Below, in pieces: positions 1,285 to 17,042 of a stretch of DNA of 17,042 bases. Numbering within the stretch: position 1 is the first letter of the stretch; each line of letters opens with the position of its first letter. Both the position numbers and the translations under genes were made by a program. Under the pieces are notes generated by a model. That model searched no databases and was not told the origin of the DNA. It worked only from the letters and a program-made list of their open reading frames with translations. Source of the DNA: a virus (taxonomy: Duplodnaviria; Heunggongvirae; Uroviricota; Caudoviricetes); IMG/VR virus record IMGVR_UViG_2617270978_000019; one strand, 5' to 3'.

Positions 1285-1317
1285 AGGTTGCTCCGGGCTA
1301 TGAAATAGAAAAATGAA

Positions 1318-1418
1318 TCCGTTGAAGCCTGCTTTTTTATACTAAGTTGGCATTATAAAAAAGCATTGCTTATCAATTTGTTGCAACGAACAGGTCACTA
1401 TCAGTCAAAATAAAATCA
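1318..1418. other. attL: bacterial arm, 15-bp lambda core GCTTTTTTATACTAA (1331-1345), phage P-prime arm with Int arm-type sites
   Basis: Exact lambda core sequence; downstream CAGGTCACTATCAGTCAAAATAAAATCATTATTTG matches the lambda attP P-prime arm; about 74 bp from the int stop as in lambda. Confidence 0.93.
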
Positions 1419-2685: not shown

Positions 2686-2710
2686 CGCAAAGTCTCCGCA
2701 ATTACACGCA

Positions 2711-2734
2711 AGAAAAAACCGCCATCAGGCGGCT
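2711..2734 (-). terminator. Intrinsic terminator (minus strand) just upstream of xis
   Basis: Minus-strand hairpin CCGCC-tgat-GGCGG followed by TTTTTT (plus A-run 2713-2718). Confidence 0.5.
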
Positions 2735-2903
2735 TGGTGTTCTTTCAGTTCTTCAATTCGAATATTGGTTACGTCTGCATGTGCTATCTGCGCCCACAGC
2801 ATCCAGTGGTCATAGCAGTCGCTGATGTTCTCGGCTTCGATAACTCTGTTGAATGGTTCTCCATTCCATTCACCTGTAACTCGGAAGTGCATTTATCATC
2901 GCC

Positions 2904-2960
2904 ATAAAACAAAACTCGCCGTAGCGAGTTCAGATAAAAGAAAACCCGCACTCGGCGGGG
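2904..2960 (-). terminator. Tandem intrinsic terminators (minus strand)
   Basis: Two minus-strand GC hairpins (AACTCGC/GCGAGTT 2913-2930 and CCCGC/GCGGG 2945-2959), each followed by a T-rich tract on the minus strand. Confidence 0.5.
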
Positions 2961-3240
2961 TCGCATTCGTTCAAATTGCGTTTACTTCTTGGCGTTCTGT
3001 TCATCCATATCGATATACCATGGGTTGCTTCCCTTGGGCATGTTTAACGACTGCTCGCGATAGTATCTGATGCGCTCCATGAAATACTCGCGTGAGTGCT
3101 CAGGTTGCTCTCATGATACCTGCTCAGTGATAACAGGTATGTTAAGGCGCTCTCTGTACTCCATGCCTGATGCTGCAAGGTCAACGTTTACCTTGTTCTG
3201 TTTTTCTTTCGATTTCTCGGCGATGTTATGCCTGACATTG

Positions 3241-3483
3241 TCAACCCGCCTCCTTCTGAACATAACGGTTATAAATCAGTCCCTGAGGGCCATAAGGAAG
3301 CGGGATGTGCAACTCCTCTGGTTCAGAAACTATCCATTCCCCGGCCATCTCCGCTGGAGAGGTAATGATAAGTTGTTTGCTAATAAAAGGACCACTCCTC
3401 TCAACAACAAGCTTACCATCTTCATTAATAAAAGCTTGGATGTCAGGTGTGCTTCCACACTTGGTGATGCAGCGTTTGAACAT
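3241..3483 (-). CDS. Hypothetical protein in the Ea8.5 position
   Basis: ORF with GGGGGA Shine-Dalgarno 6 nt upstream of the ATG at 3483 (longer 94-aa frame to 3525 possible); same strand as surrounding operon; family not recognised. Confidence 0.45.
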   Translation of the reverse strand: MFKRCITKCGSTPDIQAFINEDGKLVVERSGPFISKQLIITSPAEMAGEWIVSEPEELHIPLPYGPQGLIYNRYVQKEAG

Positions 3484-3609
3484 TTTGTGTCCCCCCATTT
3501 TATGGACGGGGTAATTATAACACATTGAAATATAGTAATATTTGACGTAGATTTCTTTTGATCTATAAGCGATTTTTTAATGCTTTTAAGTTATAAATAC
3601 TTGTTATCA

Positions 3610-4155
3610 TCACCCATCTTGCTGCGGTGCTACTATTGAAAAGTACTCACACCCTTTAGCCCAAATAGTTTTGATAGTTGTCCAACTGACTGGAACCTTG
3701 ATTTCGATTCTTCCGCTGCCGTCACAAGTTTCGCAATCATCATCACCAAAGCATTCCGGGCAGCTTATAAACGTAGTTTCTGAAAATTCACCGGATAGCA
3801 CACCCTTAGCGCCGTTCTCAGCGGTTAGTTTCTTCGGCACTATAACCCAACCATCCGGAGTTACCGGAGAGTTGCCATTTATATCGAAGTTTGGCTCTGC
3901 GTCCTGAACCAGGAGGATGTAACCATTCTTGGCAGTATCAAGTTCTAACGCCTCGGTGACGGTACCGAAATAGCGATTACCTAAATCCGCATCACAAGTG
4001 CTTACATCAATGGAAACCTCCATGCCTTCGATTAATTCTGGCAAGTTGTAAGTTTGGCTTACAGGTTCTGCTCCCAGTGATGCCAGTGCAATTCGTGCCA
4101 GTTCCATTTGTTCGCCACGAGTAAGCCCGTTTTCAAGCGGATTTTTAATGAACAA
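3610..4155 (-). CDS. Hypothetical protein with C-terminal CxxC...CxxCxGxG zinc-ribbon (DnaJ-type finger-like)
   Basis: 181-aa ORF; motif CPECFGDDDCETCDGSG near C-terminus; operon context. Confidence 0.6.
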   Translation of the reverse strand: MFIKNPLENGLTRGEQMELARIALASLGAEPVSQTYNLPELIEGMEVSIDVSTCDADLGNRYFGTVTEALELDTAKNGYILLVQDAEPNFDINGNSPVTPDGWVIVPKKLTAENGAKGVLSGEFSETTFISCPECFGDDDCETCDGSGRIEIKVPVSWTTIKTIWAKGCEYFSIVAPQQDG

Positions 4156-4195
4156 TTCAATACGTTCTTTGGTAATAGTGGTTATTTGTTAGTCC

Positions 4196-4951
4196 TTAAA
4201 CTGCTAGTTGCAATTGCATTTCAAAGCGGTCGCGTTGTTCACAATACGCAAGAGAACCAGGGCTATTGTGTGCCTCAATCCGTTCTACCATTAATGCTGC
4301 GCGTGTCTCTTTACTTGCAGGTGCATAAGCCCCAGACCAGGCTTTATCAATACCGATGTTTCGAGCGACGTTCGTACTATCTGCGCTGGCTAAGGGTAAT
4401 TTTGTGAATATCAGCGGATTTAACATGCGCAATCCATGTAGTTTCGTAACCGGCTGACCATGCCCATCAACAATGTGACGAATCAGGTCTTTCATTCTGG
4501 CTACCGCAAGAGTTGGGCGCTTTACGTCATAGTCGCCACAACTACCTATAGCCACTCGCGGAAACTCATTGCACAAATGAATAAATCGCTCGTCACTTTC
4601 ATTCATGTGCCACACTGGAACGCCAGCTAGTTTTCCGTGAGGCCACTCATTCAGAAGCGCATCATTTTCCTCCTCTCCGCCATCAATAACATCCGGGATA
4701 ATGGCAAAATCGAATCCTGGGTGATTCTTCCAGCGAGCAACAAACTCGTAGTAATCGCTCCAGTCGATTTTGTTTTTGCCAGCTGCTTTCCAGGCGGTGA
4801 ATGCACCGTTGTCCAGCGCGAACGACTGACAGTATTCAGCCGCGAGATTGATCTGGCCTGAATGCGCAAAACTGATAAACGCATGTCGCCCTTTCCATGC
4901 TCTCATTGCGCACGTATCAGGAGTAATAGGCCCACCGTGGTAGTGAATCAT
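4196..4951 (-). CDS. TGT-fold (tRNA-guanine transglycosylase-like) protein lacking the C-terminal zinc subdomain; candidate DpdA-like DNA-guanine transglycosylase
   Basis: Start at ATG 4951 with AGGAGA Shine-Dalgarno and 1-nt spacing from upstream stop; segments resemble TGT motifs: LDNGAF (cf. TDSGGF), VAIGSCGD (cf. AVGGLAVGE), KLHGLRM (cf. YLMGVG), STNVARNIG (cf. PTRNARNG); no CxCxxC...H zinc site. Confidence 0.5.
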   Translation of the reverse strand: MIHYHGGPITPDTCAMRAWKGRHAFISFAHSGQINLAAEYCQSFALDNGAFTAWKAAGKNKIDWSDYYEFVARWKNHPGFDFAIIPDVIDGGEEENDALLNEWPHGKLAGVPVWHMNESDERFIHLCNEFPRVAIGSCGDYDVKRPTLAVARMKDLIRHIVDGHGQPVTKLHGLRMLNPLIFTKLPLASADSTNVARNIGIDKAWSGAYAPASKETRAALMVERIEAHNSPGSLAYCEQRDRFEMQLQLAV

Positions 4952-4952
4952 C

Positions 4953-5360
4953 TCACTCTCCTTTGATGCGAATGCCAGTAGCGCGGATTGCATCGATGAC
5001 TTCAGAAACTTTGTATGCCATTACCGTTTGGTAATCATCGTGAAAATCTGTTCGATGAAGCATGCTGCTACGTTCCGGGAGCAGTATTTCCCGCGCTTCC
5101 AGTTCTGCAATGCGCTTTTTTGCTGCTTCCAGTTCATCCAGTAATTCCAGCACGGTAGCCGGATTAGCCTTGGCAACAAAATCCCGGACTGGCTTACAAT
5201 CAATCTCCGCAATGGGTTGATACGATGTGTAGCCATGCTGTCTTGTATAACTACCGTGACGAATAACGAAAAAATCACCATTTATTTTTTTAGCCTGCCA
5301 CTTATCTTCACCGGCTTTCTCTGCCGCTTCACGCAGTGCCTGAGAGTTAATTTCGCTCAC
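4953..5360 (-). CDS. Ea22-like protein (short variant)
   Basis: N-terminus MSEINSQALREAAEKA and C-terminus GIRIKGE match my memory of lambda Ea22 termini; central region differs. Confidence 0.6.
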   Translation of the reverse strand: MSEINSQALREAAEKAGEDKWQAKKINGDFFVIRHGSYTRQHGYTSYQPIAEIDCKPVRDFVAKANPATVLELLDELEAAKKRIAELEAREILLPERSSMLHRTDFHDDYQTVMAYKVSEVIDAIRATGIRIKGE

Positions 5361-5578
5361 TTCGAACCTCTCTGTTTACTGATAAGCTCCAGATCCTCCT
5401 GGCAACTTGCACAAGTCCGACAACCCTGAACGACCAGGCGTCTTCGTTCATCTATGGGATCGCCACACTCACAACAATGAGTGGCGGATATAGTCTGGTA
5501 GTTCAGACGACGCATTTTTATTGCTGTATTGCGCTGTAATTCTTCAATTTCTGATGCTGAATCAATGATGTCCGCCAT
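5357..5578 (-). CDS. TraR/DksA-family C4 zinc-finger protein (lambda Orf73-type)
   Basis: 73-aa ORF with CCECGD...CRTCASC four-cysteine motif typical of TraR/DksA C4 fingers. Confidence 0.75.
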   Translation of the reverse strand: MADIIDSASEIEELQRNTAIKMRRLNYQTISATHCCECGDPIDERRRLVVQGCRTCASCQEDLELISKQRGSK

Positions 5579-5627
5579 CTTTCATTAATCCCTGAATTGT
5601 TGGTTAATACGCTTGAGGGTAAATGCG

Positions 5628-5654
5628 AATAATAAAAAAGGAGCCTGTAGCTCC
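5628..5654 (-). terminator. Intrinsic terminator (minus strand) inside the leftward early operon
   Basis: Minus-strand hairpin agGGAGC-uacag-GCUCCuu followed by TTTTTTATTATT. Confidence 0.55.
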
Positions 5655-5676
5655 CTGATGATTTTGCTTTTCATGT

Positions 5677-5892
5677 TCACCGTTCCTTAAAGACGCCGTT
5701 CAACATGCCGATCGCCAGGCTTAAATGAGTCGGTGTGAATCCCATCAGCGTTACCGTTTCGCGGTGCTTCTTCAGTACGCTACGGCAAATGTCATCGACG
5801 TTTTTATCCGGAAACTGCTGTCTGGCTTTTTTGATTTCAGAATTAGCCTGACGGGCAATACTGCGAAGGGCGTTTTCCTGCTGAGGTGTCAT
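5677..5892 (-). CDS. Hypothetical small protein (orf61 position)
   Basis: ORF from internal ATG (MTPQQENALRSIARQ...); the longer 93-aa frame has an implausible Cys/His-rich N-terminus; weak ribosome-binding site. Confidence 0.4.
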   Translation of the reverse strand: MTPQQENALRSIARQANSEIKKARQQFPDKNVDDICRSVLKKHRETVTLMGFTPTHLSLAIGMLNGVFKER

Positions 5893-5968
5893 TGAACAAG
5901 TCCCATGTCGGCAAGCATAAGCACACAGAATATGAAGCCCGCTGCCAGAAAAATGCATTCAGTGGTTG

Positions 5969-6160
5969 TCATACCTGGTCTCTCTCATCTGCTTCTGCTT
6001 TCGCCACCATCATTTCCAGCTTTTGTGAAAGGGATGTGGCTAACGTATGAAATTCTTCGTCTGTTTCTACTGGTATTGGCACAAACCTGACTCCAATTTG
6101 AGCAAGGCTATGTGCCATCTCAATACTCGTTCTTAACTCAACAGGAGATGCTTTGTGCAT
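5969..6160 (-). CDS. Lambda Orf63-like protein
   Basis: 63-aa [26 protein letters not shown] in the position of lambda orf63, overlapping the next gene as in lambda. Confidence 0.7.
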   Translation of the reverse strand: MHKASPVELRTSIEMAHSLAQIGVRFVPIPVETDEEFHTLATSLSQKLEMMVAKAEADERDQV

Positions 6161-6321
6161 ACCGTCTCCCGTTTATTATTTATCTTCTCAGCCAGCCGCT
6201 GTGCTTTCAGTGGATTTCTGATAACAGAAAGGCCGGGAAATACCCAGCCTCGCTTTGTAACGGAGTAGACGAAAGTGATCGCGCCTACCCGGATATTATC
6301 GTGAGGATGCGTCATCGCCAT
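6133..6321 (-). CDS. Lambda Orf60a-like protein
   Basis: 62-aa [24 protein letters not shown] immediately upstream of exo with overlap. Confidence 0.65.
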
Positions 6322-6992
6322 TGCTCCCCAAATACAAAACCAATTTCAGCCAGTGCCTCGTCCATTTTTTCGATGAACTCCGGCACCATCTCGTCAAAAC
6401 TCGCCATGTACTTTTCATTCCGCTCAATCACGACATAATGCAGGCCTTCACGCTTCATGCGCGGGTCATAGTTGGCAAAGTACCAGGCATCTTTTCGCGT
6501 CACCCACATGCTGTACTGCACCTGGGCCATGTAAGCCGACTTTATGGCCTCGAAACCACCGAGCCGGAACTTCATGAAATCCCGGGAGGTAAACGGGCAT
6601 TTCAGCTCAAGGCCGTTGCCGTCACTGCATAAACCATCGGGAGAGCAGGCGGTGCGCATACTTTCGTCGCGATAGATGATCGGGGATTCAGTAACATTCA
6701 CGCCGGAAGTAAACTCAAACAGGGCTCTGGCGTCATTCTCGTACTGTTTTCCCCAGGCCAGCGCCTTAGCGTTAACTTCCGGAGCCACACCGGTGCAAAT
6801 CTCAGCCAGCAGGGTGTGAAAGTAGGACATTTTCATGTCAGGCCACTTTTTACCGGAGCGGGGTTTTGCTATCACATTGTGAACTTCTGAAGCCGTGATG
6901 ACGCCGAGTCGTAATTTGTTCCACGCATCATCTCCCTGTTCGACAGCTCTCACGTCGATCCCGGTACGCTGCAGGATAATGTCCGGTGTCAT
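6312..6992 (-). CDS. exo: Lambda exonuclease (Red alpha)
   Basis: 226-aa [43 protein letters not shown], lambda Exo length and sequence; overlaps bet. Confidence 0.97.
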
Positions 6993-7774
6993 GCAGCCAC
7001 CTTCTGCTCAGAGGCTTTCTGTTTCAGGAATCCAAGAGCTTTCACTGCTTCGGCCTGTGTCAGTTCTGACGATGCGCGAATGTCGCGGCGAAATATCTGG
7101 GAACAGAGCGGCAATAAGTCGTCATCCCATGTTTTATCCAGGGCAATCAGCAGAGTGTTAATCTCCTGCATGGTTTCATCGTTAACCGGAGTGATGTCGC
7201 GTTCCGGCTGACGTTCTGCAGTGTATGCGGTATTTTCGACAATGCGCTCGGCTTCATCCTTGTCATAGATACCAGCAAATCCGAAGGCCAGACGGGCACA
7301 CTGAATCATGGCTTTATGACGTAACATCCGTTTGGGATGCGACTGCCACGGCCCCGTGATTTCTCTGCCTTCGCGGGTTTTGAATGGTTCGCGGCGGCAT
7401 TCATCCATCCATTCGGTAACGCAGATCGGATGATTACGGTCCTTGCGGTAAATCCGGCATGTACAGGATTCATTGTCCTGCTCAAAGTCCATGCCATCAA
7501 ACTGCTGGTTTTCATTGATGATGCGGGACCAGCCATCAACGCCCACCACCGGAACGATGCCGTTCTGCTTATCAGGGAAGGCGTAAATTTCTTTCGTCCA
7601 CGGATTAAGGCCGTACTGGTTGGCGACGATCAACAATGCGATGAACTGCGCATCGCTGGCATCACCTTTAAATGCCGTCTGGCGAAGAGTGGTGATCAGT
7701 TCCTGTGGGTCGACAGAATCCATGCCGACACGTTCAGCCAGCTTCCCTGCCAGCGTTGCGAGTGCTGTACTCAT
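6989..7774 (-). CDS. bet: Red beta single-strand annealing protein
   Basis: 261-aa [62 protein letters not shown], lambda Bet. Confidence 0.97.
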
Positions 7775-7779
7775 CCGTT

Positions 7780-8076
7780 TTATACCTCTGAATCAATATC
7801 AACCTGGTGGTGAGCAATGGTTTCAACCATGTACTGGATGTGTTCTGCCATGCGCTCCTGAAACTCAACATCGTCATCAAACGCACGGGTAATGGCTTTT
7901 TTGCTGGCCCCGTGGCGTTGCAAATGATCGATGCATAGCGATTCAAACAGGTGCTGGGGCAGGCCTTTTTCCATGTCGTCTGCCAGTTCTGCCTCTTTCT
8001 CTTCACGGGCGATCTGCTGGTAGTGACGCGCCCAGCTCTGAGCCTCAAGACGATCCTGAATGTAATAAGCGTTCAT
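7780..8076 (-). CDS. gam: Gam (RecBCD inhibitor), short form only
   Basis: 98-aa [24 protein letters not shown] with AGGAGG Shine-Dalgarno; in-frame stop 19 codons upstream so no long Gam form. Confidence 0.93.
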
Positions 8077-8151
8077 GGCTGACCTCCTGAAAATGGCTGT
8101 GAAAATATCGCCCGCGAAATGCCAGGCTGATTAGGAAAACAGGAAAGGGGA

Positions 8152-8442
8152 TTAGTGATTCAGGCCGTTACCGCGTCCGTCGAGAAAAACTTCCACGAGC
8201 AAATCACGGGTATAAGTGCGCTCGATGCCGCGATGCAGATAAAGCCGTCCGCGTAAATTAGCTGATGCAGTCCAGGTACCATCTTTGTGTTTGACCAGCA
8301 TTCCTGGCATGACCGCACCTCGATTAACGGTCTGCGTTCCATAATGTTGATGAACCATAAAAACTCCTGCCCGTAAGCTGGGCTGCTGAACATATAGAGA
8401 CTTCTGCGCGTATTCAGGCGGTGGATGGCCGCCGGTTGTCAT
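8152..8442 (-). CDS. Hypothetical protein in the kil/cIII position (start uncertain; may begin at internal Met near 8301)
   Basis: 96-aa ORF ending 76 bp upstream of the gam start, as lambda kil does; no similarity recognised to lambda Kil or CIII; an alternative overlapping frame (8160-8393) exists. Confidence 0.4.
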
Positions 8443-8628
8443 AACTAAGCCGCCTCGTTGAAGCGACTAAGGTATGAAATGTTGAGTTAATTTCAGCTGG
8501 TCACACCGACGTTCACGCGTCCGTTTCACCCCTCGCACTCCCCGAAGCCTGCTGAAATTCAAACTGCGGATCTAAGCGGTCATCGCAACGGTGAATCAGG
8601 TAGTTGCCGTATCGTTGTGTTGTTGCGA

Positions 8629-8692
8629 TGAACTTATTTAAAACTATAGTTGTTTTATCGTCAACAACAAAAGTTGTTTTATTGGTTGTTTT
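8629..8692 (-). promoter_or_regulatory. OL/PL: leftward early promoter with operator repeats
   Basis: Minus-strand TTGACG (plus 8659-8664), 17-bp spacer, TTAAAT (plus 8636-8641); overlapping AAAACAAC / GTTGTTTT operator half-sites repeated 3-4 times, same motif as at OR. Confidence 0.65.
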
Positions 8693-8807
8693 AGATATAA
8701 CTGGTTGTATTTAGGATGGATTTATTTTGTGACTTGAATCGCATAGCGATAACTGAAGCGAGGTTATGGTGGTTTTTTTAACGGTGTGTGTGTGATGAGG
8801 GGAGGGC

Positions 8808-8834
8808 AAAAGAAAACCCGGCACGGTGACCGGG
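8808..8834 (-). terminator. Intrinsic terminator downstream of the repressor gene
   Basis: Minus-strand hairpin CCCGG-ucaccgug-CCGGG followed by TTTTCTTTT. Confidence 0.6.
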
Positions 8835-8955
8835 ATTCTTACGCCGTTAGGTAAAGATATTATTGCGGTGGCTTAATATTACTACCTAGAGCAAAGATAG
8901 GAATTAGTTCTTTACTGAATGAGCACAATGCCCAGTTGATAATTTTTAATTGGTA

Positions 8956-9645
8956 CTACCCATGCTTCCTATATGTCTGCGGCATGCTCCCAATAACCTT
9001 ACCGAAGATGAACACCCGGTTCATCTCGTCTTTCTCGATCGGGTCCCACGGTGAGTAGCTTTTGTTATCAGAGATGACCAGCAGCTTATCCTTCATCATT
9101 TGCAGGCGCTTTACATGGGCTGTGTCGTCGTACAGAAACGCATAGATACCATCACCGTCGAAAGATTTAACTGTGATATCAACGAACAGCAGATCACCTG
9201 GTTCGATCGTTCCTGACATGCTGTCACCACGCACGTTAATGATGCGGATATTTTCCGCCTTCCTACCATCGAACATGTGACGAGCATCGTCAAACGAGTA
9301 CTCAACCGAGCGTAGAACTTCTACAAACTCACGGTTGATGACTCCCGGCCCAGCACTGACTTCTATATCAAGAACGTCAATCTTGAAGTATTTGGAATGG
9401 CTGACAGTTGATTGTATTGGTTGCACTGTACTGTCTGACATATTTCCAACGCCAGAAGATAACCATTCTGCGCGCACACCCAAAGCGTTCGCGATCTCCA
9501 CGATTTTAGTTGTTTGATTAGCTTTCCCTGTTTCGATTTTCTGAATAGCAGCCTGGCTAACCCCGACCAAATCCCCAAGCGCCTTTTGTGTAAGGCCTCG
9601 CGCTAATCTGGCTTCTTTAAGTCTTTCTGAGAGTGTTGTTTTCAT
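8956..9645 (-). CDS. CI-type prophage repressor (N-terminal XRE HTH, C-terminal S24 LexA-like autopeptidase)
   Basis: Start at Met MKTTLSERLKEARLARGLTQKALGDLVGVSQAAIQKIE (HTH); C-terminal GDSM serine motif and HVKRL lysine of the Ser-Lys dyad; near-leaderless start downstream of PRM-like promoter. Confidence 0.9.
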   Translation of the reverse strand: MKTTLSERLKEARLARGLTQKALGDLVGVSQAAIQKIETGKANQTTKIVEIANALGVRAEWLSSGVGNMSDSTVQPIQSTVSHSKYFKIDVLDIEVSAGPGVINREFVEVLRSVEYSFDDARHMFDGRKAENIRIINVRGDSMSGTIEPGDLLFVDITVKSFDGDGIYAFLYDDTAHVKRLQMMKDKLLVISDNKSYSPWDPIEKDEMNRVFIFGKVIGSMPQTYRKHG

Positions 9646-9729
9646 AGTCCAAATGTACAACCAAGGTTTTATCCCATCAAACGAAAATGGTTGTTGACTA
9701 AAAACAACCATAGTTTTAATCTTGATTCA
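9646..9729. promoter_or_regulatory. OR region with divergent PRM and PR and palindromic operator
   Basis: PR: TTGACT (9694-9699), 17 bp, TAATCT (9717-9722); PRM on minus: TTGATG (plus 9675-9680), 17 bp, TACATT (plus 9652-9657), 6 nt before repressor ATG; palindrome ATGGTTGTT-n7-AACAACCAT (9687-9711). Confidence 0.7.
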
Positions 9730-9749
9730 AATTAACCACGGAGGTTGTT

Positions 9750-9980
9750 ATGAACCCAGCTATCAAAACAGCGATCAATATCGTTGGTTCACAAAAGAAA
9801 CTGGGCGCTGCTTGCGAAGTTTCACAGCAGGCCGTCTATAAGTGGCTTCACAACAAAGCAAAGGTATCCCCTGAACATGTCGGCAGCATTGTTACGGCTA
9901 CTGGTGGAGTAGTGAAGGCATACCAGATTCGCCCGGATCTTCCGAAGTTGTTTCCACACACCGAAAAGAACGCAGCTTAA
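9750..9980 (+). CDS. Cro-like HTH regulator (YdaS/Cro family)
   Basis: 76-aa ORF divergent from repressor, GGAGG Shine-Dalgarno; HTH segment QKKLGAACEVSQQAVYKWL. Confidence 0.85.
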   Translation: MNPAIKTAINIVGSQKKLGAACEVSQQAVYKWLHNKAKVSPEHVGSIVTATGGVVKAYQIRPDLPKLFPHTEKNAA

Positions 9981-9992
9981 ATTTCCATTTCA

Positions 9993-10005
9993 CGCTCTTT
10001 AACAA
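9993..10005 (+). promoter_or_regulatory. boxA-like element (CGCTCTTTAACAA) downstream of cro
   Basis: Contains GCTCTTTAACAA, identical to the rrn-type boxA consensus core, at the position of lambda nutR; no convincing boxB hairpin follows. Confidence 0.5.
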
Positions 10006-10049
10006 TAAGCAATCAACTTAACAGTCAATTCAAACTAAAGGAGTCAATT

Positions 10050-10589
10050 ATGCAACCACTTACATACCAACAGACTAGCGGATTTAGCCCGACTGCGGTG
10101 ATAAATCGTTCTCAAACAAAACAGGTGCCAGGCCACGAAAAAATCCGTGATGCCGTCCGCGCCTGGTCGGCTGTAGATAATCAGGATGTCGTTGCCACAC
10201 TCATTGTGAATGAGTATCGGGAGCAGGGCGGCGGCACCATCGATTTCCCTGATGATGTCAGCCGTGCACGCCAGAAGCTGTTCCGCTTCCTCGATAACAA
10301 ATTCGATTCTGAAAAATACCGAAATAACGTGCGTGAACTGACCCCGGCAATTCTGGCGGTACTACCGCTGGAATATCGCGGTTACCTGGTTGAGCAGGAT
10401 AGCTTCATGGCTAGGTTGGCTGAAATGGAAAAGGAACTCAGTGAGGCAAAACAGGCTGTCATTCTCAACGCACCACGCCACCAGAAACTGAAGGAAATTA
10501 GTGAAGGTATTGTGTCGATGTTTCGTGTGGACCCAGATCTGGCTGGTCCATTGATGGCGATGGTTACTACCATGCTGGGGGCGATATGA
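10050..10589 (+). CDS. Regulatory protein in the cII position (YdaT/CP76-type CII-like, not lambda CII)
   Basis: 179-aa ORF with AAGGAG Shine-Dalgarno, located between cro-like and O; family assignment from memory only. Confidence 0.5.
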   Translation: MQPLTYQQTSGFSPTAVINRSQTKQVPGHEKIRDAVRAWSAVDNQDVVATLIVNEYREQGGGTIDFPDDVSRARQKLFRFLDNKFDSEKYRNNVRELTPAILAVLPLEYRGYLVEQDSFMARLAEMEKELSEAKQAVILNAPRHQKLKEISEGIVSMFRVDPDLAGPLMAMVTTMLGAI

Positions 10590-10675
10590 CAGGTTCAGAA
10601 ATGGCGAAAGCCGGTCTGCTGGAACAGAACCGACTTTCAGGTGCAAATCGTAACACACTCATTGCGGGAGGAATT

Positions 10676-11605
10676 ATGGCAAACACTGCTGAGATATTCA
10701 ATTTTCCAGTGCCGGATGCGGCACAAAAGGAGCCGCGCGTGGCAGATCTCGATGATGGTTATACGCGCATTGCAAATGAGTTGCTGGAAGCTGTGATGCT
10801 GGCCGGATTAACACAGCACCAGCTTCTGGTCTTTCTGGCTGTCATGCGCAAAACATATGGCTTTAATAAAAAACTGGATTGGGTTAGCAACGAGCAACTT
10901 TCCGAATTAACCGGGATATTGCCGCACAAGTGTTCTGCTGCAAAAAGTGTTCTGGTAAAGCGTGGGATTTTTATTCAGAGCGGGCGGAATACCGGCATTA
11001 ATAATGTGGTCAGTGAATGGTCAACATTACCCGAATCAGGTAAGAAAAATAAAGTTTACCTGAAAGAGGTAAATTTACCTGAATCAGGTAAAAAAAGTTT
11101 ACCCACATCAGGTAAAGGCGTTTACCCGAATCAGGTAAACACAAAAGACAAACTAACAAAAGACAATATAAAACCTTTTTCGTCCGAGAATTCTGGCGAA
11201 TCCTCTGACCAACCAGAAAACGATCTTCCTGTGGTGAAACCGGATGCTGCAATTCAGAGCGGCAGCAAGTGGGGGACAGCAGAAGACCTGACCGCCGCAG
11301 AGTGGATGTTTGACATGGTGAAGACCATCGCGCCATCAGCCAGAAAACCGAATTTTGCAGGGTGGGCTAACGATATCCGCCTGATGCGTGAACGTGACGG
11401 ACGTAACCACCGCGACATGTGTGTGCTGTTCCGCTGGGCATGCCAGGACAACTTCTGGTCCGGTAACGTGCTAAGTCCGGCCAAACTCCGCGACAAGTGG
11501 ACCCAGCTCGAAATCAACCGAAACAAGCAACAGGCTGGCGTGATAGCCGGCAAACCAAAACTCGACCTGACGAACACTGACTGGATTTACGGGGTGGAGC
11601 TATGA
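10676..11605 (+). CDS. O: Replication initiator O (lambda O family)
   Basis: Start MANTAEIFNFPV with GGGAGG Shine-Dalgarno; N-terminal domain resembles lambda O (ADLDDGY, RKTYG); internal iterons; overlaps P start. Confidence 0.9.
   Translation: MANTAEIFNFPVPDAAQKEPRVADLDDGYTRIANELLEAVMLAGLTQHQLLVFLAVMRKTYGFNKKLDWVSNEQLSELTGILPHKCSAAKSVLVKRGIFIQSGRNTGINNVVSEWSTLPESGKKNKVYLKEVNLPESGKKSLPTSGKGVYPNQVNTKDKLTKDNIKPFSSENSGESSDQPENDLPVVKPDAAIQSGSKWGTAEDLTAAEWMFDMVKTIAPSARKPNFAGWANDIRLMRERDGRNHRDMCVLFRWACQDNFWSGNVLSPAKLRDKWTQLEINRNKQQAGVIAGKPKLDLTNTDWIYGVEL
11027..11139. repeat. Replication origin iterons: five 19-bp copies of TTTACC(C/T)GAATCAGGTAAA-like repeat, followed by AT-rich tract to about 11185
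   Basis: Repeats at 11027, 11055, 11074, 11098 and 11121, each internally palindromic; located inside O as in ori-lambda. Confidence 0.85.
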
Positions 11606-12303
11606 AAAACATCGCCGCACAGATGGTTAACTTTGACTGTGAGCAGATGCGCCGGATCGCCAACAACATGCCGGAACAGTACGACGAAAAGCCACAGGTA
11701 CAGCAGGTAGCGCAGATCATCAACGGTGTGTTCAGCCAGTTACTGGCAACTTTCCCGGCGAGCCTGGCTAACCGTGACCAGAATGAACTGAACGAAATCC
11801 GCCGCCAGTGGGTTCTGGCTTTCCGGGAAAACGGGATCACCACAATGGAACAGGTTAACGCTGGAATGCGCGTAGCCCGTCGGCAGAATCGACCATTCCT
11901 GCCATCACCCGGGCAGTTTGTCGCCTGGTGCCGGGAAGAAGCATCTGTTAACGCCGGGCTGCCAAACGTCAGCGAGCTGGTTGATATGGTTTACGAGTAT
12001 TGCCGGAAGCGTGGCCTGTATCCGGATGCAGAGTCTTATCCGTGGAAATCGAACGCGCATTACTGGTTGGTTACCAACTTGTACCAGAACATGCGGGCCA
12101 ATGCGCTGACTGACGCGGAATTACGGCGCAAGGCTGCCGATGAACTGACCTGTATGACAGCGCGAATTAACCGTGGTGAGACGATACCTGAACCAGTAAA
12201 ACAACTTCCTGTTATGGGCGGTAGACCTCTAAATCGTGCACAGGCTCTGGCGAAGATCGCAGAAATCAAAGCTAAGTTTGGGCTGAAAGGAGCAAGGGTA
12301 TGA
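11602..12303 (+). CDS. P: Replication protein P (DnaB helicase loader)
   Basis: 233-aa ORF MKNIAAQMVNFDCEQMRRIANNMPEQYDEKPQVQQVAQIINGVF, essentially lambda P. Confidence 0.96.
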   Translation: MKNIAAQMVNFDCEQMRRIANNMPEQYDEKPQVQQVAQIINGVFSQLLATFPASLANRDQNELNEIRRQWVLAFRENGITTMEQVNAGMRVARRQNRPFLPSPGQFVAWCREEASVNAGLPNVSELVDMVYEYCRKRGLYPDAESYPWKSNAHYWLVTNLYQNMRANALTDAELRRKAADELTCMTARINRGETIPEPVKQLPVMGGRPLNRAQALAKIAEIKAKFGLKGARV

Positions 12304-12602
12304 CGGGCAAAGAGGCAATTATTCATTACCTGGGGACTCATAAGAAATTCTGTGCGCAGGACGTTGCCGCGGTAACAGGCGCAACGGTAACCAGCATAAA
12401 TCAGGCTGCGGCTAAAATGGCGCGGGCAGGAATCCTGGTCGTTGATGGTAAGGTCTGGCGAACGGTGTATTATCGGTTCGCTACCAGAGAAGAATGGGAA
12501 GGAAAGGTGAGCACGAATTTGATTTTTAAGGAGTGTCGCCAGAGTGCCGCGATGAAACGGGTATTGAGGGTATATAAAAGAACATCAATGGGTACACAAT
12601 GA
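12300..12602 (+). CDS. ren: Ren (Rex exclusion protein), variant C-terminus
   Basis: 100-aa ORF MTGKEAIIHYLGTH...VTSINQAAAKMARAG matches lambda Ren; the last residues appear to diverge, consistent with a recombination junction at its 3-prime end. Confidence 0.85.
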   Translation: MTGKEAIIHYLGTHKKFCAQDVAAVTGATVTSINQAAAKMARAGILVVDGKVWRTVYYRFATREEWEGKVSTNLIFKECRQSAAMKRVLRVYKRTSMGTQ

Positions 12603-12619
12603 TGAAACAGGTGAGTTGA

Positions 12620-12654
12620 GTTCAAACTGTAGTACAATTCTCTCCAGTTTGAAC
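12620..12654. repeat. Perfect 10-bp inverted repeat GTTCAAACTG-n15-CAGTTTGAAC between ren and emrE
   Basis: Read directly; sits 18 bp after ren stop and 16 bp before emrE ATG; no T-run follows. Confidence 0.8.
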
Positions 12655-12669
12655 AGGAAAGAATATGCT

Positions 12670-13002
12670 ATGAATCCTTATATTTATCTTGGTGGTGCAA
12701 TACTTGCAGAGGTCATTGGTACAACCTTAATGAAGTTTTCAGAAGGTTTTACACGGTTATGGCCATCTGTTGGTACAATTATTTGTTATTGTGCATCATT
12801 CTGGTTATTAGCTCAGACGCTGGCTTATATTCCTACAGGGATTGCTTATGCTATCTGGTCAGGAGTCGGTATTGTCCTGATTAGCTTACTATCATGGGGA
12901 TTTTTCGGCCAACGGTTGGACCTGCCAGCCATTATAGGCATGATGTTGATTTGTGCCGGTGTGTTGGTTATTAATTTATTGTCACGAAGCACACCACATT
13001 AA
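12670..13002 (+). CDS. emrE: SMR-family multidrug efflux transporter EmrE
   Basis: 110-aa product MNPYIYLGGAILAEVIGTTLMKFSEGFTRLWPSVGT, four TM helices, matches E. coli EmrE. Confidence 0.95.
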   Translation: MNPYIYLGGAILAEVIGTTLMKFSEGFTRLWPSVGTIICYCASFWLLAQTLAYIPTGIAYAIWSGVGIVLISLLSWGFFGQRLDLPAIIGMMLICAGVLVINLLSRSTPH

Positions 13003-13257
13003 AAATAATTTGTTTTTAAACGACTAAAATATGGAGGTTCGTATATTTATATGGGCCTCGTTTTATGCTTTTTGTTAATGTCTTTAGTTTTTATTCATTC
13101 TTTTGTGCTTTCAGGATTATGGTGTAAGAAAATTGCAATACGATTATTGTTGTATATTTAAGATAATGTGACCTTAATTGTCTTTTTAAATAAAAATTAA
13201 ACAAAAATCATATCTCACCACTAAGGTTTATAAAAGCATACTTTAGCAGGTGTCACC

Positions 13258-14784
13258 ATGAAAAAAGCCATAGCATATATGCGATTTTCATCACCAGGTC
13301 AGATGTCTGGTGATTCATTAAACCGCCAGAGAAGGCTTATTACTGAATGGCTAAAGGTAAATAGTGATTATTACCTTGATACCGTAACGTATGAAGATTT
13401 GGGGTTAAGCGCATTCAATGGAAAGCATGCACAATCAGGAGCTTTTTCGGAATTTTTAGATGCTATAGAACATGGTTATATATTGCCAGGGACTACATTG
13501 TTAGTTGAAAGTCTGGACAGACTTTCAAGAGAAAAAGTCGGTGAAGCGATTGAGCGTCTGAAATTGATTTTGAATCACGGTATTGATGTTATAACTCTTT
13601 GCGATAATACAGTCTATAATATTGACTCATTGAATGAGCCATATTCATTAATAAAAGCCATACTTATAGCACAAAGGGCAAATGAAGAAAGCGAGATAAA
13701 GTCAAGTCGGGTTAAATTATCATGGAAGAAAAAACGGCAGGATGCACTGGAGTCAGGCACGATTATGACGGCGTCTTGTCCGAGATGGCTCTCATTGGAT
13801 GACAAAAGAACGGCTTTTGTTCCAGACCCCGACAGGGTGAAAACTATTGAGCTAATTTTTAAACTCAGGATGGAAAGGCGCTCATTGAATGCAATAGCCA
13901 AGTATTTAAATGATCATGCTGTAAAGAATTTCTCAGGAAAAGAAAGTGCATGGGGACCTTCTGTAATTGAAAAATTATTAGCGAATAAAGCTCTGATAGG
14001 TATATGCGTACCTTCATATCGTGCAAGAGGTAAAGGAATAAGTGAAATCGCTGGCTATTATCCCAGAGTCATATCAGATGATTTGTTTTACGCTGTGCAG
14101 GAAATTCGGTTGGCACCTTTTGGTATTAGCAATAGTAGCAAAAATCCTATGTTGATAAATCTACTTCGAACAGTTATGAAGTGCGAGGCTTGTGGTAATA
14201 CCATGATTGTTCATGCGGTATCTGGAAGTTTGCATGGCTATTATGTTTGTCCGATGAGAAGACTGCATCGATGTGACAGGCCATCAATAAAGAGAGATTT
14301 GGTTGATTATAATATCATTAATGAGTTGCTTTTTAATTGTAGTAAAATCCAACCAGTTGAAAACAAGAAAGATGCTAATGAAACTTTAGAGTTGAAAATT
14401 ATTGAGCTCCAGATGAAAATTAATAATTTAATTGCTGCATTATCTGTTGCGCCTGAAGTTACCGCTATAGCAGAAAAAATCAGAGTATTAGATAAGGAAT
14501 TACGAAGGGCTTCTGTATCATTAAAAACTTTGAAGAGTAAAGCGGTGAGTTCACTTGGTGATTTTCATGCTATTGACTTAACCAGTAAAAATGGGCGAGA
14601 GCTATGTCGTACACTTGCCTATAAAACATTCGAAAAAATCATAATCAATACAGATAATAAAACCTGTGATATCTATTTTATGAATGGCATTGTTTTTAAA
14701 CACTATCCTTTAATGAAAACAATATCCGCCCAGCAGGCGATAAGTACTCTCAAATATATGGTTGATGGTGAGGTTTATTTTTGA
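13258..14784 (+). CDS. ybcK: Large serine recombinase (YbcK-type)
   Basis: 508-aa ORF; N-terminal resolvase domain with catalytic-serine context AYMRFSSPGQ, central recombinase domain, CEACGN...CPMRRLHRC zinc ribbon, C-terminal coiled coil; low GC. Confidence 0.9.
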   Translation: MKKAIAYMRFSSPGQMSGDSLNRQRRLITEWLKVNSDYYLDTVTYEDLGLSAFNGKHAQSGAFSEFLDAIEHGYILPGTTLLVESLDRLSREKVGEAIERLKLILNHGIDVITLCDNTVYNIDSLNEPYSLIKAILIAQRANEESEIKSSRVKLSWKKKRQDALESGTIMTASCPRWLSLDDKRTAFVPDPDRVKTIELIFKLRMERRSLNAIAKYLNDHAVKNFSGKESAWGPSVIEKLLANKALIGICVPSYRARGKGISEIAGYYPRVISDDLFYAVQEIRLAPFGISNSSKNPMLINLLRTVMKCEACGNTMIVHAVSGSLHGYYVCPMRRLHRCDRPSIKRDLVDYNIINELLFNCSKIQPVENKKDANETLELKIIELQMKINNLIAALSVAPEVTAIAEKIRVLDKELRRASVSLKTLKSKAVSSLGDFHAIDLTSKNGRELCRTLAYKTFEKIIINTDNKTCDIYFMNGIVFKHYPLMKTISAQQAISTLKYMVDGEVYF

Positions 14785-14895
14785 GTAATAATCACTTTTT
14801 CAACCGTGCTATAGTAAGAAAGTTAGGTAAGTACAATAAAATTATCTATCCTGAACGAAGCGTCCTGAGCTATGGTTTTACTATAGGGACTGCCA

Positions 14896-15135
14896 ATGGA
14901 TGCTGGCGTTCTCGTTCTAGCAGTTCAACAATACCCAATCACAAAACAATTCACTGATAACAAACTTTGTGCACGTGCTTGGTTATGGCGAGCAGGTGAT
15001 GTGATGTTAACTGCCTGCCAGAACGTTACTCCACTACTTCAGGTTGCGGAGCACCGCGAAGCCGGCCGCTTTACTTCTATCGAGCATGAATATCCCCAGA
15101 TACTCAACAGAGCGCGAGCAATCCTCGCCAGATAA
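14896..15135 (+). CDS. Hypothetical small protein (possibly a gene remnant)
   Basis: 79-aa ORF with weak AGGGA ribosome-binding site in a GC-richer patch; no recognised family. Confidence 0.25.
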   Translation: MDAGVLVLAVQQYPITKQFTDNKLCARAWLWRAGDVMLTACQNVTPLLQVAEHREAGRFTSIEHEYPQILNRARAILAR

Positions 15136-15239
15136 ACGGCACATGTAAAATTCCAGCCGTGGCTGGATGATAAGTGGAGTCGAGTGTTACCATATTTCCG
15201 TCAGAATCTGTTCCAATAAAGTCACTAGTTAGAAATACT

Positions 15240-15277
15240 GCCAGCATTCTACGATGACGGAAGTGCTGGCATTTTTT
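15240..15277 (+). terminator. Intrinsic terminator (plus strand)
   Basis: Hairpin GCCAGCA...TGCTGGC followed by ATTTTTT. Confidence 0.6.
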
Positions 15278-15453
15278 GGGTAATATGCGAGTCCATTTCA
15301 TAAAATACGGGTGCTGTAAACTGGACGATATAATCTAAAATATACCATTACCAGTAGCCTTCAAATCGCTATGTGCCGATACGGATAAAATTATATTGAT
15401 TGTGCACATACCTTATTGGATATTACTGAGGGGTATTTATATAAGGTGTAACG

Positions 15454-15963
15454 ATGATGTGGAACTTTGACAGTGCCGACTTAAGTGCAATAGCAGCAGG
15501 TATTTCTGCGTTTGGCACATTAGCCGCAGCGGGGTCGGCGCTTGCAAGTTGGTACACGTCAAAAAAAGCGCTGCAGCTACAAAATAGAGTTTACCTTTAT
15601 GAGTCTTTAAAGGCTTGCGCTGAGAGAGCCAATTCATCAGCTAAAGATAAGCGCGGATCTGAATGGAGCGTTAATGATGCAGCGGATATCATCAGGTGCC
15701 TAGTACGGGCGATGGAGATCATCAAGCAGGATAGCCAGCAGAAAGAAGGTAATCAGGCATTAATGTTGAAACAGTACTTTGTTAATCTGCTAATAATGGA
15801 ACTGTACGAGGAAGTTCATAACGGTGATGCGGCTGATTCTGTTTTTAAAAGTACGGAACCTACACAAGTACTTGATAACTTATGGAGCAAATGGCAGGAG
15901 GCTATAGCTTTTTTTGATATTTGGAATTACCCAGTTGCGACTGAGGAAGACTTGGCAGACTAA
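15454..15963 (+). CDS. Hypothetical membrane-anchored protein (single N-terminal TM helix, helical soluble domain)
   Basis: 169-aa ORF; AAGGTG ribosome-binding site; hydrophobic segment LSAIAAGISAFGTLAAAGSALASWY; bounded by the upstream terminator and AT-rich promoter-like sequence; no family recognised. Confidence 0.6.
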   Translation: MMWNFDSADLSAIAAGISAFGTLAAAGSALASWYTSKKALQLQNRVYLYESLKACAERANSSAKDKRGSEWSVNDAADIIRCLVRAMEIIKQDSQQKEGNQALMLKQYFVNLLIMELYEEVHNGDAADSVFKSTEPTQVLDNLWSKWQEAIAFFDIWNYPVATEEDLAD

Positions 15964-16157
15964 TTTTCAGCACATTTGATTTCCAATAATCAACCAGCCA
16001 TAATCATGCCATTGGAGCCTGAACAACTCCGGTGACTTCTGCGCTAAACGGGGACGTTTATGCGCACATACAAACCAACCTATCTTCTCCATTCACAGAT
16101 GCAGAAATGCACCTGCGATATATTGTATCCAGCGTTTGACCTCTGCGGAGGTGAAGC

Positions 16158-16613
16158 GTGAATCTCCCACAAGATGGCATCAAATTACATCGCGGTAACT
16201 TCACCGCTATCGGTCGGCAGATCCAGCCTTATCTGGAGGAGGGCAAATGCTTTCGCATGGTGCTTAAACCGTGGCGTGAGAAACGCAGTCTTTCCCAGAA
16301 TGCACTCAGCCACATGTGGTACAGCGAAATCAGTGAATACCTCATCAGCAGGGGTAAAACGTTCGCTACTCCAGCTTGGGCAAAAGATGCTCTCAAACAC
16401 ACATATCTCGGTTATGAAACCAAAGACCTGGTTGATGTCGTAACCGGTGATATCACCACTATCCAGTCGTTACGCCATACCTCCGATCTTGATACCGGAG
16501 AGATGTATGTCTTCCTGTGTAAGGTTGAAGCCTGGGCGGTGAATATTGGCTGCCACCTGACTATTCCGCAGAGCTGCGAGTTCCAGCTGCTCCGCGACAA
16601 GCAGGAGGCGTAA
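16158..16613 (+). CDS. ninB: NinB-family recombination protein (YbcN-like)
   Basis: 151-aa ORF, GTG start with GGAGG Shine-Dalgarno; [20 protein letters not shown] aligns with the lambda NinB RSLDQN region. Confidence 0.7.
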
Positions 16614-16622
16614 TGGCTACAC

Positions 16623-17042
16623 TGAACCGCCCCGGGTTTCCTGGAGAGTGTTTTATCTGTGAATTCAGGCTGCCAGATCATCGTTTCCGATGGAAGCATA
16701 ATAAGCTTTTTCTGCTTCTGCCGGGGGGATATGGCCCAGCCTTTCCAGCAATCGTCGATTGTTATACCAGTCCACCCACGTGAGTGTGGCCAGCTCCACT
16801 TCTGTCCGGTTTTTCCAGCTCTTACGGTGTATTACCTCCGCTTTGTAAAGACCATTGATGCTCTCCGCCATCGCGTTGTCATACGAGTCGCCTGTACTTC
16901 CTGTTGATGCCAGTAATCCGGCTTCCTTAAGCCGCTGTGTGTAGGCCAGCGATACATACTGAGAACCTTTATCACTGTGATGGACCGTGCCGGACGGTCG
17001 ACGGGCCCATAACGCCTGCTCCAGTGCATCCAGCACGAATGT
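16623..17042 (-). mobile_element. IS3-family insertion sequence, terminal portion (IS629-like end); continues beyond window
   Basis: Terminal sequence TGAACCGCCCCGGGTTTCCTGGAGAGTG begins 9 bp after the ninB stop; encodes the C-terminal part of a DDE transposase. Confidence 0.75.
16665..17042 (-). CDS. IS3-family transposase OrfB, C-terminal part (5-prime end outside window)
   Basis: Translation contains the integrase-core region HSDKGSQY...DNAMAESINGLYKAEVI with the conserved catalytic E. Confidence 0.8.
   Translation of the reverse strand, partial: TFVLDALEQALWARRPSGTVHHSDKGSQYVSLAYTQRLKEAGLLASTGSTGDSYDNAMAESINGLYKAEVIHRKSWKNRTEVELATLTWVDWYNNRRLLERLGHIPPAEAEKAYYASIGNDDLAA

Follow-up and report, generated by a model that had tools for sequence, protein, structure and literature searches.

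Organisation of the ren-ninB interval

The window (the whole stretch of DNA that was analysed, 17,042 nt) belongs to a prophage that adjoins ybhC and has its own tyrosine integrase. Between ren and ybcN lies a block (12603-16157) made up of emrE, the large serine recombinase (LSR) gene ybcK, a C-terminal fragment of the antirepressor gene rha and a 169-aa ORF, hereafter ORF169 (Table 1). The GC content of the block is 38.8%, against 48.2% at 1-12602 and 0.504 for O-P-ren, and GC3 is 0.33 in emrE and 0.30 in ybcK versus 0.59 in both P and ybcN. This agrees with the first-pass annotation, which had described an AT-rich stretch past ren and named EmrE and a YbcK-type LSR, both recovered here with NCBIfam (EmrE) and Pfam domains (YbcK). 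It had also listed two uncharacterised ORFs: one is the rha fragment, while the other is a member of phrog_1779, to which no function is assigned.

Table 1. Features of the block and its surroundings, in window positions
Feature	Position	Strand	Remarks
Tyrosine integrase	1419-2489		integrase of the host prophage
ren	12300-12602	+	phrog_142 Ren-like, E 1e-41; left anchor of the slot
Cassette M1	12593-13009	+	emrE
emrE CDS	12670-13002	+	NCBIfam EmrE NF042984, 240.6 bits (cutoff 226)
Hairpin with U-run, terminator-like	13034-13059	+	downstream of emrE; -14 kcal/mol, z -3.35
Cassette M2	13010 to about 14908	+	ylcJ'-ybcK
ylcJ-like ORF, truncated	13042-13160	+	within M2
ybcK	13258-14784	+	508 aa; large serine recombinase; followed by ~124 nt of 3' flank of M2
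Cassette M3	14909-15971	+	rha'-ORF169
rha' ORF	14896-15135	+	P22_AR_C only; 3' part of Rha/antirepressor gene
M3a	14909-15283	+	3' part of rha, then hairpin
Hairpin with U6	15239-15277	+	-20.3 kcal/mol, z -3.0
ORF169 (M3b)	15454-15963	+	169 aa, phrog_1779
Right boundary	15976-16035	+	promoter-like TTGATT-17-CATAAT and hairpin (CCATTGGAG...CTCCGGTGA), in every variant
ylcH	16060-16161	+	backbone nin gene
ybcN	16158-16613	+	NinB/Orf family, phrog_72, E 6e-52; backbone nin gene
IS3-family element end (IS1203-like)	16623-17042	-	named from database matches; outside the block

The cargo had been said to start right after ren and to replace nin-region genes until phage-like sequence resumes at ninB. 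The block is real, but its left homology break falls inside the end of ren (12567-12590), before the stop codon. The last ~10 ren codons (12567-12602) are allele-specific and track with the cargo downstream, and similarity ends at 12575 against lambda and at 12566 against phages without emrE. On the right, phage-like sequence does resume, but earlier than stated, at about 15972-16000, ~160-185 nt upstream of ybcN and together with ylcH; all variants regain similarity there. In the phage 82 record X92588, the promoter-like element and hairpin at this boundary carry the labels putative -35/-10 and 'possible regulator-binding site'. Farther right, the IS element is inserted 10 nt into ninE, and the window departs from E. 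coli 55989 at 16622. The replacement of nin-region genes was not borne out. Since the ren-ninB gap of lambda (order ren-tR2-ninB, a slot without cargo) is just 73 nt and holds only tR2, the block is extra DNA in the slot and not a substitute for nin genes.

Fillings of the slot and histories of the cassettes

On comparison with the genomes of K-12, O157 and 55989 and with about ten lambdoid phage isolates, the block is probably not one element but a mosaic of three nested cassettes, each with a history of its own (M1, M2 and M3), lodged in the ren-ninB accessory ('moron') slot. Overall, this is ordinary phage mosaicism, a textbook lambdoid case. GC is unequal between the cassettes (0.39, 0.355 and 0.43, with flanks at about 0.50), and each of them ends in a terminator-like hairpin.

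M1 encodes an efflux pump that benefits the host and has a leader and a terminator of its own. EmrE, the model SMR transporter, exports drugs and osmolytes, and the sequence encoded here (MNPYIYLGGAILAEV) has E at position 14, corresponding to the membrane-embedded Glu14. The 77-nt leader contains a hairpin (12620-12654) that is conserved, but without compensatory change in ~92% identical copies; Rfam gave 0 matches in the block at E<=1, and hence no riboswitch or other known RNA upstream of emrE. The 417 bp of M1 recur, ~92% identical, next to fliE as emrE-ybcL-ybcM in many E. coli chromosomes, with neither ren nor ybcK, and dN/dS of emrE against these fliE-side copies is 0.01-0.04. E. coli emrE is a phage-shuttled cassette that is common in two genomic settings: the ren-ninB slot of lambdoid phages, and the fliE-yedK interval, where it lies in the degraded remnant of a DLP12-like prophage.

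M3, as judged from other lambdoid phages in which the module is intact, is the 3' remnant of an rha-ORF169 module. Similarity to full-length rha of PhiR5_1 and PhiR26_1 begins at 14909, within the gene, and rha' is annotated as a pseudogene in 55989. ORF169 accompanies rha in other phages; in PhiR5_1 and PhiR26_1 the pair is found without emrE or ybcK. The ORF169 protein is all-helical with a hydrophobic N-terminus, and its homologues, restricted to prophages, form just 15 clusters, all without names. Its AF2 model reached a pLDDT of 69 (13-sequence alignment), and Foldseek against PDB and BFVD returned nothing below E 0.08.

The slot had been proposed to carry exchangeable cargo, and this is supported: the ren-ninB interval was seen with at least eight different fillings. 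Five begin with emrE-ybcK, which is followed by rha'-ORF169 (as here), by ybcL-ybcM, by an alpha/beta hydrolase gene, by other small ORFs or, in O157:H7, by nothing; the others are small ORFs-rha-ORF169, PD-lambda-1-rha-ORF169 (PD-lambda-1 being the annotation in PhiR26_1) and acyltransferase-lipoprotein. The outer boundaries, i.e. the end of ren and the promoter-like element with its hairpin before ylcH-ybcN, are common to all variants, with or without ybcK. Searching 5,426 E. coli genomes with a chimeric ren+ybcN query revealed no empty site, that is, no ren-ybcN pair closer than ~800 bp; about 1,400-1,700 of these genomes carry ybcK. The ren-ninB interval keeps its place between conserved phage genes while its content is highly diverse, and most of its fillings have no recognisable defence systems.

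An intact recombinase gene in a low-GC block of variable content among prophages might suggest that emrE, ybcK and the downstream ORFs are one island, inserted by YbcK, which would also exchange the cargo downstream. Such a recombinase-borne island, as the first-pass annotation had it, is largely refuted and very improbable. The cassettes occur independently of one another and differ in GC, and the slot content varies between those outer boundaries even in phages without ybcK, which also speaks against YbcK as the agent of exchange. Furthermore, in surveys of at most 60 sampled matches per search, where rare arrangements may be missed, the junctions downstream of ybcK fell at 14850, 14876, about 14880, 15002, 15110, 15201, 15212 and 15270. 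They are thus scattered over about 480 bp, some of them with microhomology; the O157 deletion lies between TCTATC microhomologies. No direct or inverted att-like repeats bounding the block or the ybcK cassette were identified at 12300-16700, where only chance-level matches and a 6-bp AATAAT were seen. Since the lack of identifiable att-like repeats had been named in advance as a ground for giving up the island, that reading fails by its own measure. The attP and attB sites of LSRs share little sequence, so the lack of repeats is not decisive for att sites. Nevertheless, recombinase and cargo are not inherited as a unit, and we saw no precise junctions, attL/attR or empty site. An integron-like capture 3' of ybcK was also considered and rejected, the junctions being scattered and nested in the rha remnant.

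The slot might alternatively be an anti-phage defence hotspot, with YbcK and/or ORF169 as prophage-expressed defence or superinfection-exclusion genes. It follows ren, a gene related to Rex exclusion, one of its fillings carries the gene annotated as PD-lambda-1, and ORF169 combines a hydrophobic N-terminus with restriction to prophages. However, PADLOC gave 0 matches for EmrE, YbcK, the rha fragment, ORF169 and YbcN, ORF169 has no informative fold match, and EmrE, as an exporter, is not a defence protein. Moreover, ybcK of K-12 is held off by Rho-dependent termination, with a Rho/NusG-dependent terminator in its 5' UTR (PMC4150792), which is ill-suited to a defence gene expressed in the lysogen. 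We regard a defence role as quite improbable.

YbcK and its relatives

YbcK has the architecture of an LSR: a catalytic domain (Resolvase PF00239, E 9e-19) followed by recombinase (PF07508, E 2e-14) and zinc-ribbon (Zn_ribbon_recom PF13408, E 8e-8) domains, within the range of about 450-700 aa. R9, S11, D87, R88 and R91, as well as the zinc-ribbon residues C309, C312, C331 and C339, do not vary among 16 homologues. All eight alleles compared keep 508 codons, with a dN/dS of 0.06-0.08 (about 0.07) at dS up to 0.18. Thus, YbcK is intact and under purifying selection and, judging by its conserved residues, catalytically intact. Transcription of ybcK would probably occur only when N-antiterminated pR transcription overrides the upstream terminators. 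These data bear directly on the idea that ybcK is the dead relic of another phage's integration module, passively carried. Such a relic would fit with a phage that has its own tyrosine integrase, as Perceval does too, and with an att site that was not found. But retention of the full reading frame, invariance of the catalytic residues across genera and presence in viable, isolated phages such as Perceval, where ybcK stands alongside separate tyrosine Int/Xis, make a dead relic scarcely credible.

Another possibility is that the ybcK cassette alone (about 1.6-2.1 kb, approximately the gene only) is a self-mobilising LSR element that hops among accessory slots of temperate phages (nin; tail-fibre-distal) across Enterobacterales. 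M2 is absent from the fliE-yedK copy of emrE-ybcL, and this clean 2078-bp presence/absence polymorphism between emrE and ybcL would then be one insertion. Consistent with this reading, similarity across contexts is confined to the ORF and short flanks (-68/0 nt in Atlantibacter; -222/+56 in Pantoea, 94% identical; also in Ewingella), the gene recurs in two unrelated kinds of slot, and it is under purifying selection without an obvious phage role. However, the AATAAT that bounds the indel fits a short-repeat deletion equally well, and the cassette ends vary by clade with no shared terminal repeats. The flanks are poorly conserved (the noncoding flanks of ybcK less so than its third codon positions), and among the sampled E. 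coli matches ybcK is found only after emrE, with a median of one match per genome. The relatives of YbcK in other genera are indeed gene-sized cassettes, but gene-sized blocks of similarity are the usual signature of phage morons, for which self-mobility is not needed. We therefore consider this reading unlikely. A supposed case in Ca. Pantoea alvi, a cassette splitting the P gene, was rejected: there is a complete P gene as well as a second P pseudogene fragment, with no clean insertion.

The position of the relatives gives some indication of what YbcK might do. Homologues sharing 48-60% identity stand last in a prophage or island and adjoin host genes such as ssrA (Atlantibacter), lepA (Erwinia) or yedK(SRAP) (Citrobacter pasteurii and 'Enterobacteriaceae G50'); Ewingella and others have such terminal copies too. 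In Yersinia, the homologue lies at the end of a lambdoid prophage, directly beside another prophage that is P2-like. Because relatives in other genera end integrated elements beside host genes, we tentatively suggest that YbcK may be an auxiliary integrase/excisionase acting on some att site. Their terminal position could instead mean that a further moron slot lies beyond the tail fibre genes, and not point to integrase function. Other homologues lie in the post-P nin position as here (Atlantibacter RC6, Pantoea), and two Atlantibacter copies, 83% identical, occupy both kinds of position. No ybcK beside chromosomal DNA was seen among the sampled E. coli matches, and this, like the poor conservation of its flanks, counts against an integrase role. 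A plasmid search for the cassette gave three matches, two of them, including ybcK, on chromosome-sized records (1.3 and 4.9 Mb) and the third, on a 393-kb record, with emrE only. Outside E. coli, the LSRs of isolated phages share no more than 32% identity with YbcK. We also considered an invertase, given that relatives stand just after tail-fibre/chaperone genes, like Gin/Cin; it was rejected, as the fibre genes of four loci lack bracketing inverted repeats. Among papers that mention ybcK, none with biochemical or genetic work on recombination by YbcK was found, nor was a characterisation of the ren-ninB slot found in the literature.

Proposed origin and comparison with known systems

As deduced from the comparisons above, a prophage of the lambda family would have integrated next to ybhC by means of its own tyrosine integrase. 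New junctions, such as the M2/M3 joint within rha, might arise by illegitimate or microhomology-mediated recombination. Phages and prophages that share a cell might then swap whole fillings through homologous recombination within the conserved sequence on either side, namely P-ren to the left and promoter/hairpin-ylcH-ybcN to the right. Red or RecA, with Orf/Rap/RusA, would catalyse these swaps, and YbcK would not be required. Red-dependent exchange of lambdoid phages with DLP12, nin region included, has been shown experimentally, and for lambda and phi80 this was homologous exchange in the flanks (PMC3945230). The mosaic reading corrects the attractive but wrong inference that a recombinase beside cargo makes an island. 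It also singles out a conserved and selected serine recombinase in phages that already have an integrase.

The closest parallel is DLP12 of K-12 (renD-emrE-ylcJ-ybcK-ybcL-ybcM-ylcH-ybcN), which has the same gene order, orientation and outer boundaries and about 96% nucleotide identity from ren to ybcK and again from the region upstream of ylcH to ybcN. By BLAST, similarity stops at 14793, although divergent sequence can still be aligned up to about 14880; it returns at 15988. Between these points DLP12 has ybcL-ybcM, in contrast to rha'-ORF169 here (14794/14880-15987), and the earlier remark that the content after ybcK differs from DLP12 therefore holds. In addition, ren is intact here but interrupted by IS3 in DLP12, ylcJ is truncated here, and the prophage lies at ybhC, not argU, and is far more complete.

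Hendrix, Juhala and colleagues reportedly described morons and the exchange of mosaic modules among lambdoid phages. Like such morons, the block consists of extra genes between backbone genes, present or absent among close relatives, with deviant GC, junctions at gene boundaries and transcription signals of its own (terminator-like hairpins after emrE and rha'; promoters are weakly predicted). Unlike them, one of its cassettes is a recombinase gene and not a lysogen-benefit gene, and this cassette is found again in other genera, in slots of two kinds.

LSRs include phage integrases of the phiC31, Bxb1, TP901-1 and A118 type and the transposases TnpX and TndX. Should YbcK turn out to be an auxiliary integrase or self-mobile cassette, the LSR toolbox would gain a compact site-specific recombinase whose natural target lies in E. 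coli. YbcK resembles these enzymes in domain architecture, size and catalytic motif, and its relatives are terminal in integrated elements. It differs from them in that no attP/attB pair, directionality factor or integration event is attributable to it, and in that its gene lies within a phage whose integration relies on a tyrosine integrase.

Cassette structure of the block between ren and ybcN

The window is part of a lambda-family prophage adjoining ybhC, with the gene order ybhC, tyrosine integrase, xis, exo-bet-gam, cI, cro, O, P, ren, the low-GC block (12603-16157) and ylcH-ybcN. The prophage of E. coli 55989 and O104:H4-type strains is 99.5-100% identical across most of the window and departs from it at 2944-5344 and again beyond 16622. 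The first of these, a second variable segment located between xis and exo-bet, carries four ORFs, only one of which has a family match (Ead/Ea22-like). The junction formed by the IS element at the window's end is reproduced at >=99% identity in no genome of the collection searched; in two O157:H7-type records, one single-piece match (94.6%) extends across a ybcN-IS junction. IS insertions upstream of rusA activate this gene in K-12.

The composition shift after ren reported by the first-pass annotation was borne out by GC content (0.388 in the block vs 0.482 in 1-12602 and 0.504 in O-P-ren) and by GC3 (0.33 in emrE and 0.30 in ybcK vs 0.59 in P and ybcN). Family matches agreed with its gene list of emrE, the serine recombinase ybcK and two further ORFs, and the cargo behind ybcK indeed differs from that of K-12 DLP12, where ybcL-ybcM stands in place of rha'-ORF169 (primes denote truncated genes).

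Features of the block and of the window's right end (window positions)
Feature	Position	Strand	Remarks
M1, emrE	12593-13009		GC 0.39
emrE leader hairpin	12620-12654		13-bp stem
emrE	12670-13002		score above curated EmrE cut-off
M2, ylcJ'-ybcK	13010 to about 14908		GC 0.355
ybcK	13258-14784		all three large-serine-recombinase Pfam domains present
rha/antirepressor gene fragment (ORF of M3a)	14896-15135		P22_AR_C only; pseudogene in RefSeq
M3, rha'-ORF169	14909-15971		GC 0.43
ORF169 (M3b), 169 aa	15454-15963		followed by ylcH and the NinB-family gene ybcN
IS3-family element (IS1203-like)	16623-17042	-	transposase on this strand; begins 10 nt into ninE, which it interrupts; directly upstream of ybcO-rusA

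Sequence comparison indicates that the block consists of three cassettes, M1, M2 and M3, and not of one unit. The 417 bp of M1 recur, ~92% identical, in many E. coli chromosomes, at a locus arranged fliE / emrE-ybcL-ybcM-ylcH'-quuD'-nmpC' / IS200/605-yedK that has neither ren nor ybcK and is a degraded DLP12-like remnant. This second home of emrE (~90-92% identical) is exemplified by E. coli LY180 and XH990 (comparison loci L020 and L021, 6001-8489), and roughly one in two rows sampled in the E. coli search belonged to the emrE-only class. The emrE leader hairpin, which had no Rfam match, is kept in the ~92% identical chromosomal copies with one substitution breaking a stem pair. As to M2, DLP12 has 2078 bp that the remnant lacks, an insertion/deletion starting 8 nt past the emrE stop, with AATAAT on both sides. 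Since similarity to phages with full-length rha starts at 14909, within the gene, the M2/M3 joint is an illegitimate junction at which the 5' part of rha was lost. A terminator-like hairpin closes M1 and also M3a.

ORF169 has few homologues, in 15 clusters that are confined to Enterobacterales. Predictions make it an all-helical protein whose N-terminus is hydrophobic. Neither fold nor family comparison matched it significantly, and PADLOC gave no match. In other phages it is always found together with rha, the sole lead to its function.

Fillings of the ren-ninB slot

Lambda has just 73 nt, with the tR2 terminator, between ren and ninB. The block is thus a filling of this slot and not, as first proposed, a substitute for nin-region genes. 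The interval is always filled in DLP12/82-type phages, and in none of 5,426 complete E. coli genomes did window-type ren and ybcN lie within ~800 bp of each other. The proposal of exchangeable cargo was supported by at least eight distinct fillings, seen across E. coli genomes and isolated phages: emrE-ybcK followed by rha'-ORF169 (window), by ybcL-ybcM (K-12, PhiR68_2), by an alpha/beta hydrolase (Perceval, 4A7), by nothing (O157:H7) or by other small ORFs (Turner and others); small ORFs-rha-ORF169 (PhiR5_1); PD-lambda-1-rha-ORF169 (PhiR26_1); and acyltransferase-lipoprotein (PhiR30_1).

All fillings share their outer boundaries, whether ybcK is present or absent. On the left, variants diverge inside the last ~10 ren codons (12567-12590), and the ren C-terminus is specific to each cargo type. 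On the right, similarity returns at 15972-16000 in all variants. At this point, upstream of ylcH-ybcN, there is a conserved promoter-like TTGATT-17-CATAAT (15976-16004) with a hairpin behind it; the submitters of the phage 82 record marked the element as a putative promoter and site of regulator binding. In every phage compared, this region (15976-16035) delimits the slot on its right side. Its promoter-like element overlaps a palindrome, TTGATT-N6-AATCAA, and its hairpin has a 9-bp stem; the stability of the hairpin alone is not unusual (z -0.8).

YbcK and its relatives

The possibility that ybcK is a relic was rejected, as all 508 codons are kept in 8/8 alleles with a dN/dS of 0.06-0.08 at dS 0.12-0.18. 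Moreover, homologues down to 41% identity retain R9, S11, D87, R88, R91 and four zinc-ribbon cysteines without exception. The gene is found in 12 records of isolated lambdoid phages, and in Perceval, as in the window, it accompanies an ordinary tyrosine Int/Xis. The K-12 ybcK 5' UTR contains a Rho/NusG-dependent terminator (PMC4150792), and an intrinsic-type hairpin lies 3' of emrE. Our inference is that the lysogen keeps ybcK silent and that N-modified pR read-through allows its expression.

Outside E. coli, YbcK relatives occur in two contexts. In the first, they are the last gene of an integrated element: in Atlantibacter behind tail genes, about 540 bp from the ssrA 3' end; in Erwinia adjoining lepA; in Ewingella adjoining host metabolic genes; and in Citrobacter pasteurii and 'Enterobacteriaceae G50' directly 3' of the yedK/SRAP gene, with differing content beyond. 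Likewise, the Yersinia relative ends a lambdoid prophage abutting a P2-like prophage, and that of Pantoea dispersa S68 lies at an island edge adjoining host metabolic genes. In the second, they hold the post-P nin position as in E. coli (Pantoea dispersa, Ca. Pantoea alvi and Atlantibacter RC6, the last with P-ren-...-DNA methyltransferase-large serine recombinase-...-NinG-Q). Citrobacter koseri (L022, 6145-9530) offers a third kind of neighbourhood, plasmid/ICE-like (TraD, MobA), where a 49%-identical homologue adjoins a Shufflon_N-like protein.

In the two species with a yedK-adjacent recombinase (L029, 5992-8527; L032, 6107-8527), the protein is 50-52% identical to YbcK and encoded ~260 nt downstream of yedK/SRAP, followed in one by umuDC and a small resolvase, in the other by genes for phage tails. 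The emrE remnant of E. coli likewise adjoins yedK, and together these loci could hint at an attachment site nearby. Since the same host gene adjoins differing element content, an integrase function is favoured, at least for some members of the family. The most likely role of YbcK, which we put forward tentatively, might be that of an auxiliary integrase/excisionase with a putative att site. In Ewingella (L024, 9736-9939; L030), the conserved recombinase cassette starts at a TGTTCA-N6-TGAACA palindrome and includes a 67-aa ORF just 3', which could be a directionality factor.

As close relatives occupy two accessory slots, the gene may alternatively be a selfish, self-mobilising cassette. The two Atlantibacter proteins, one from each context, are 83% identical, with nucleotide similarity of their loci limited to the ORF and the 68 nt preceding it. 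In a Pantoea pair, the shared stretch (94% identical) consists of the ORF with 222 nt upstream and 56 nt downstream of it, without any further similarity. The recombinase gene therefore behaves as a gene-sized cassette.

Cargo exchange and lambdoid mosaicism

Matches starting in ybcK in the sampled E. coli genomes end at 14793 (really about 14880, the K-12 flank being diverged yet alignable), 14876 (an IS insertion), 14850, 15002, 15110, 15201, 15212 or 15270, or run through; in the O157 form, sequence has been deleted between TCTATC microhomologies. The repeat search found no direct or inverted repeats, att-like ones included, bracketing the block or the ybcK cassette. Variable columns amount to 39-83% in the ybcK 3' flank and 15% in the 5' intergenic region, against 12.6% at ybcK third codon positions, which is unlike a conserved att site. 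With separable cassettes, scattered junctions and the same slot variability in phages without ybcK, the initial idea of a recombinase-borne island was not supported, and the evidence at sequence level argues against YbcK being responsible for cargo exchange.

The pattern matches classical lambdoid mosaicism, in which rare illegitimate joints would give rise to novel cassettes and arrangements that homologous recombination within the conserved flanks would spread. Recombination of lambda and phi80 with DLP12, nin region included, has been shown experimentally (PMC3945230). The region adds one more variant to the DLP12-type emrE-ybcK moron cluster of the lambdoid nin region, a kind of feature that is already known and annotated.
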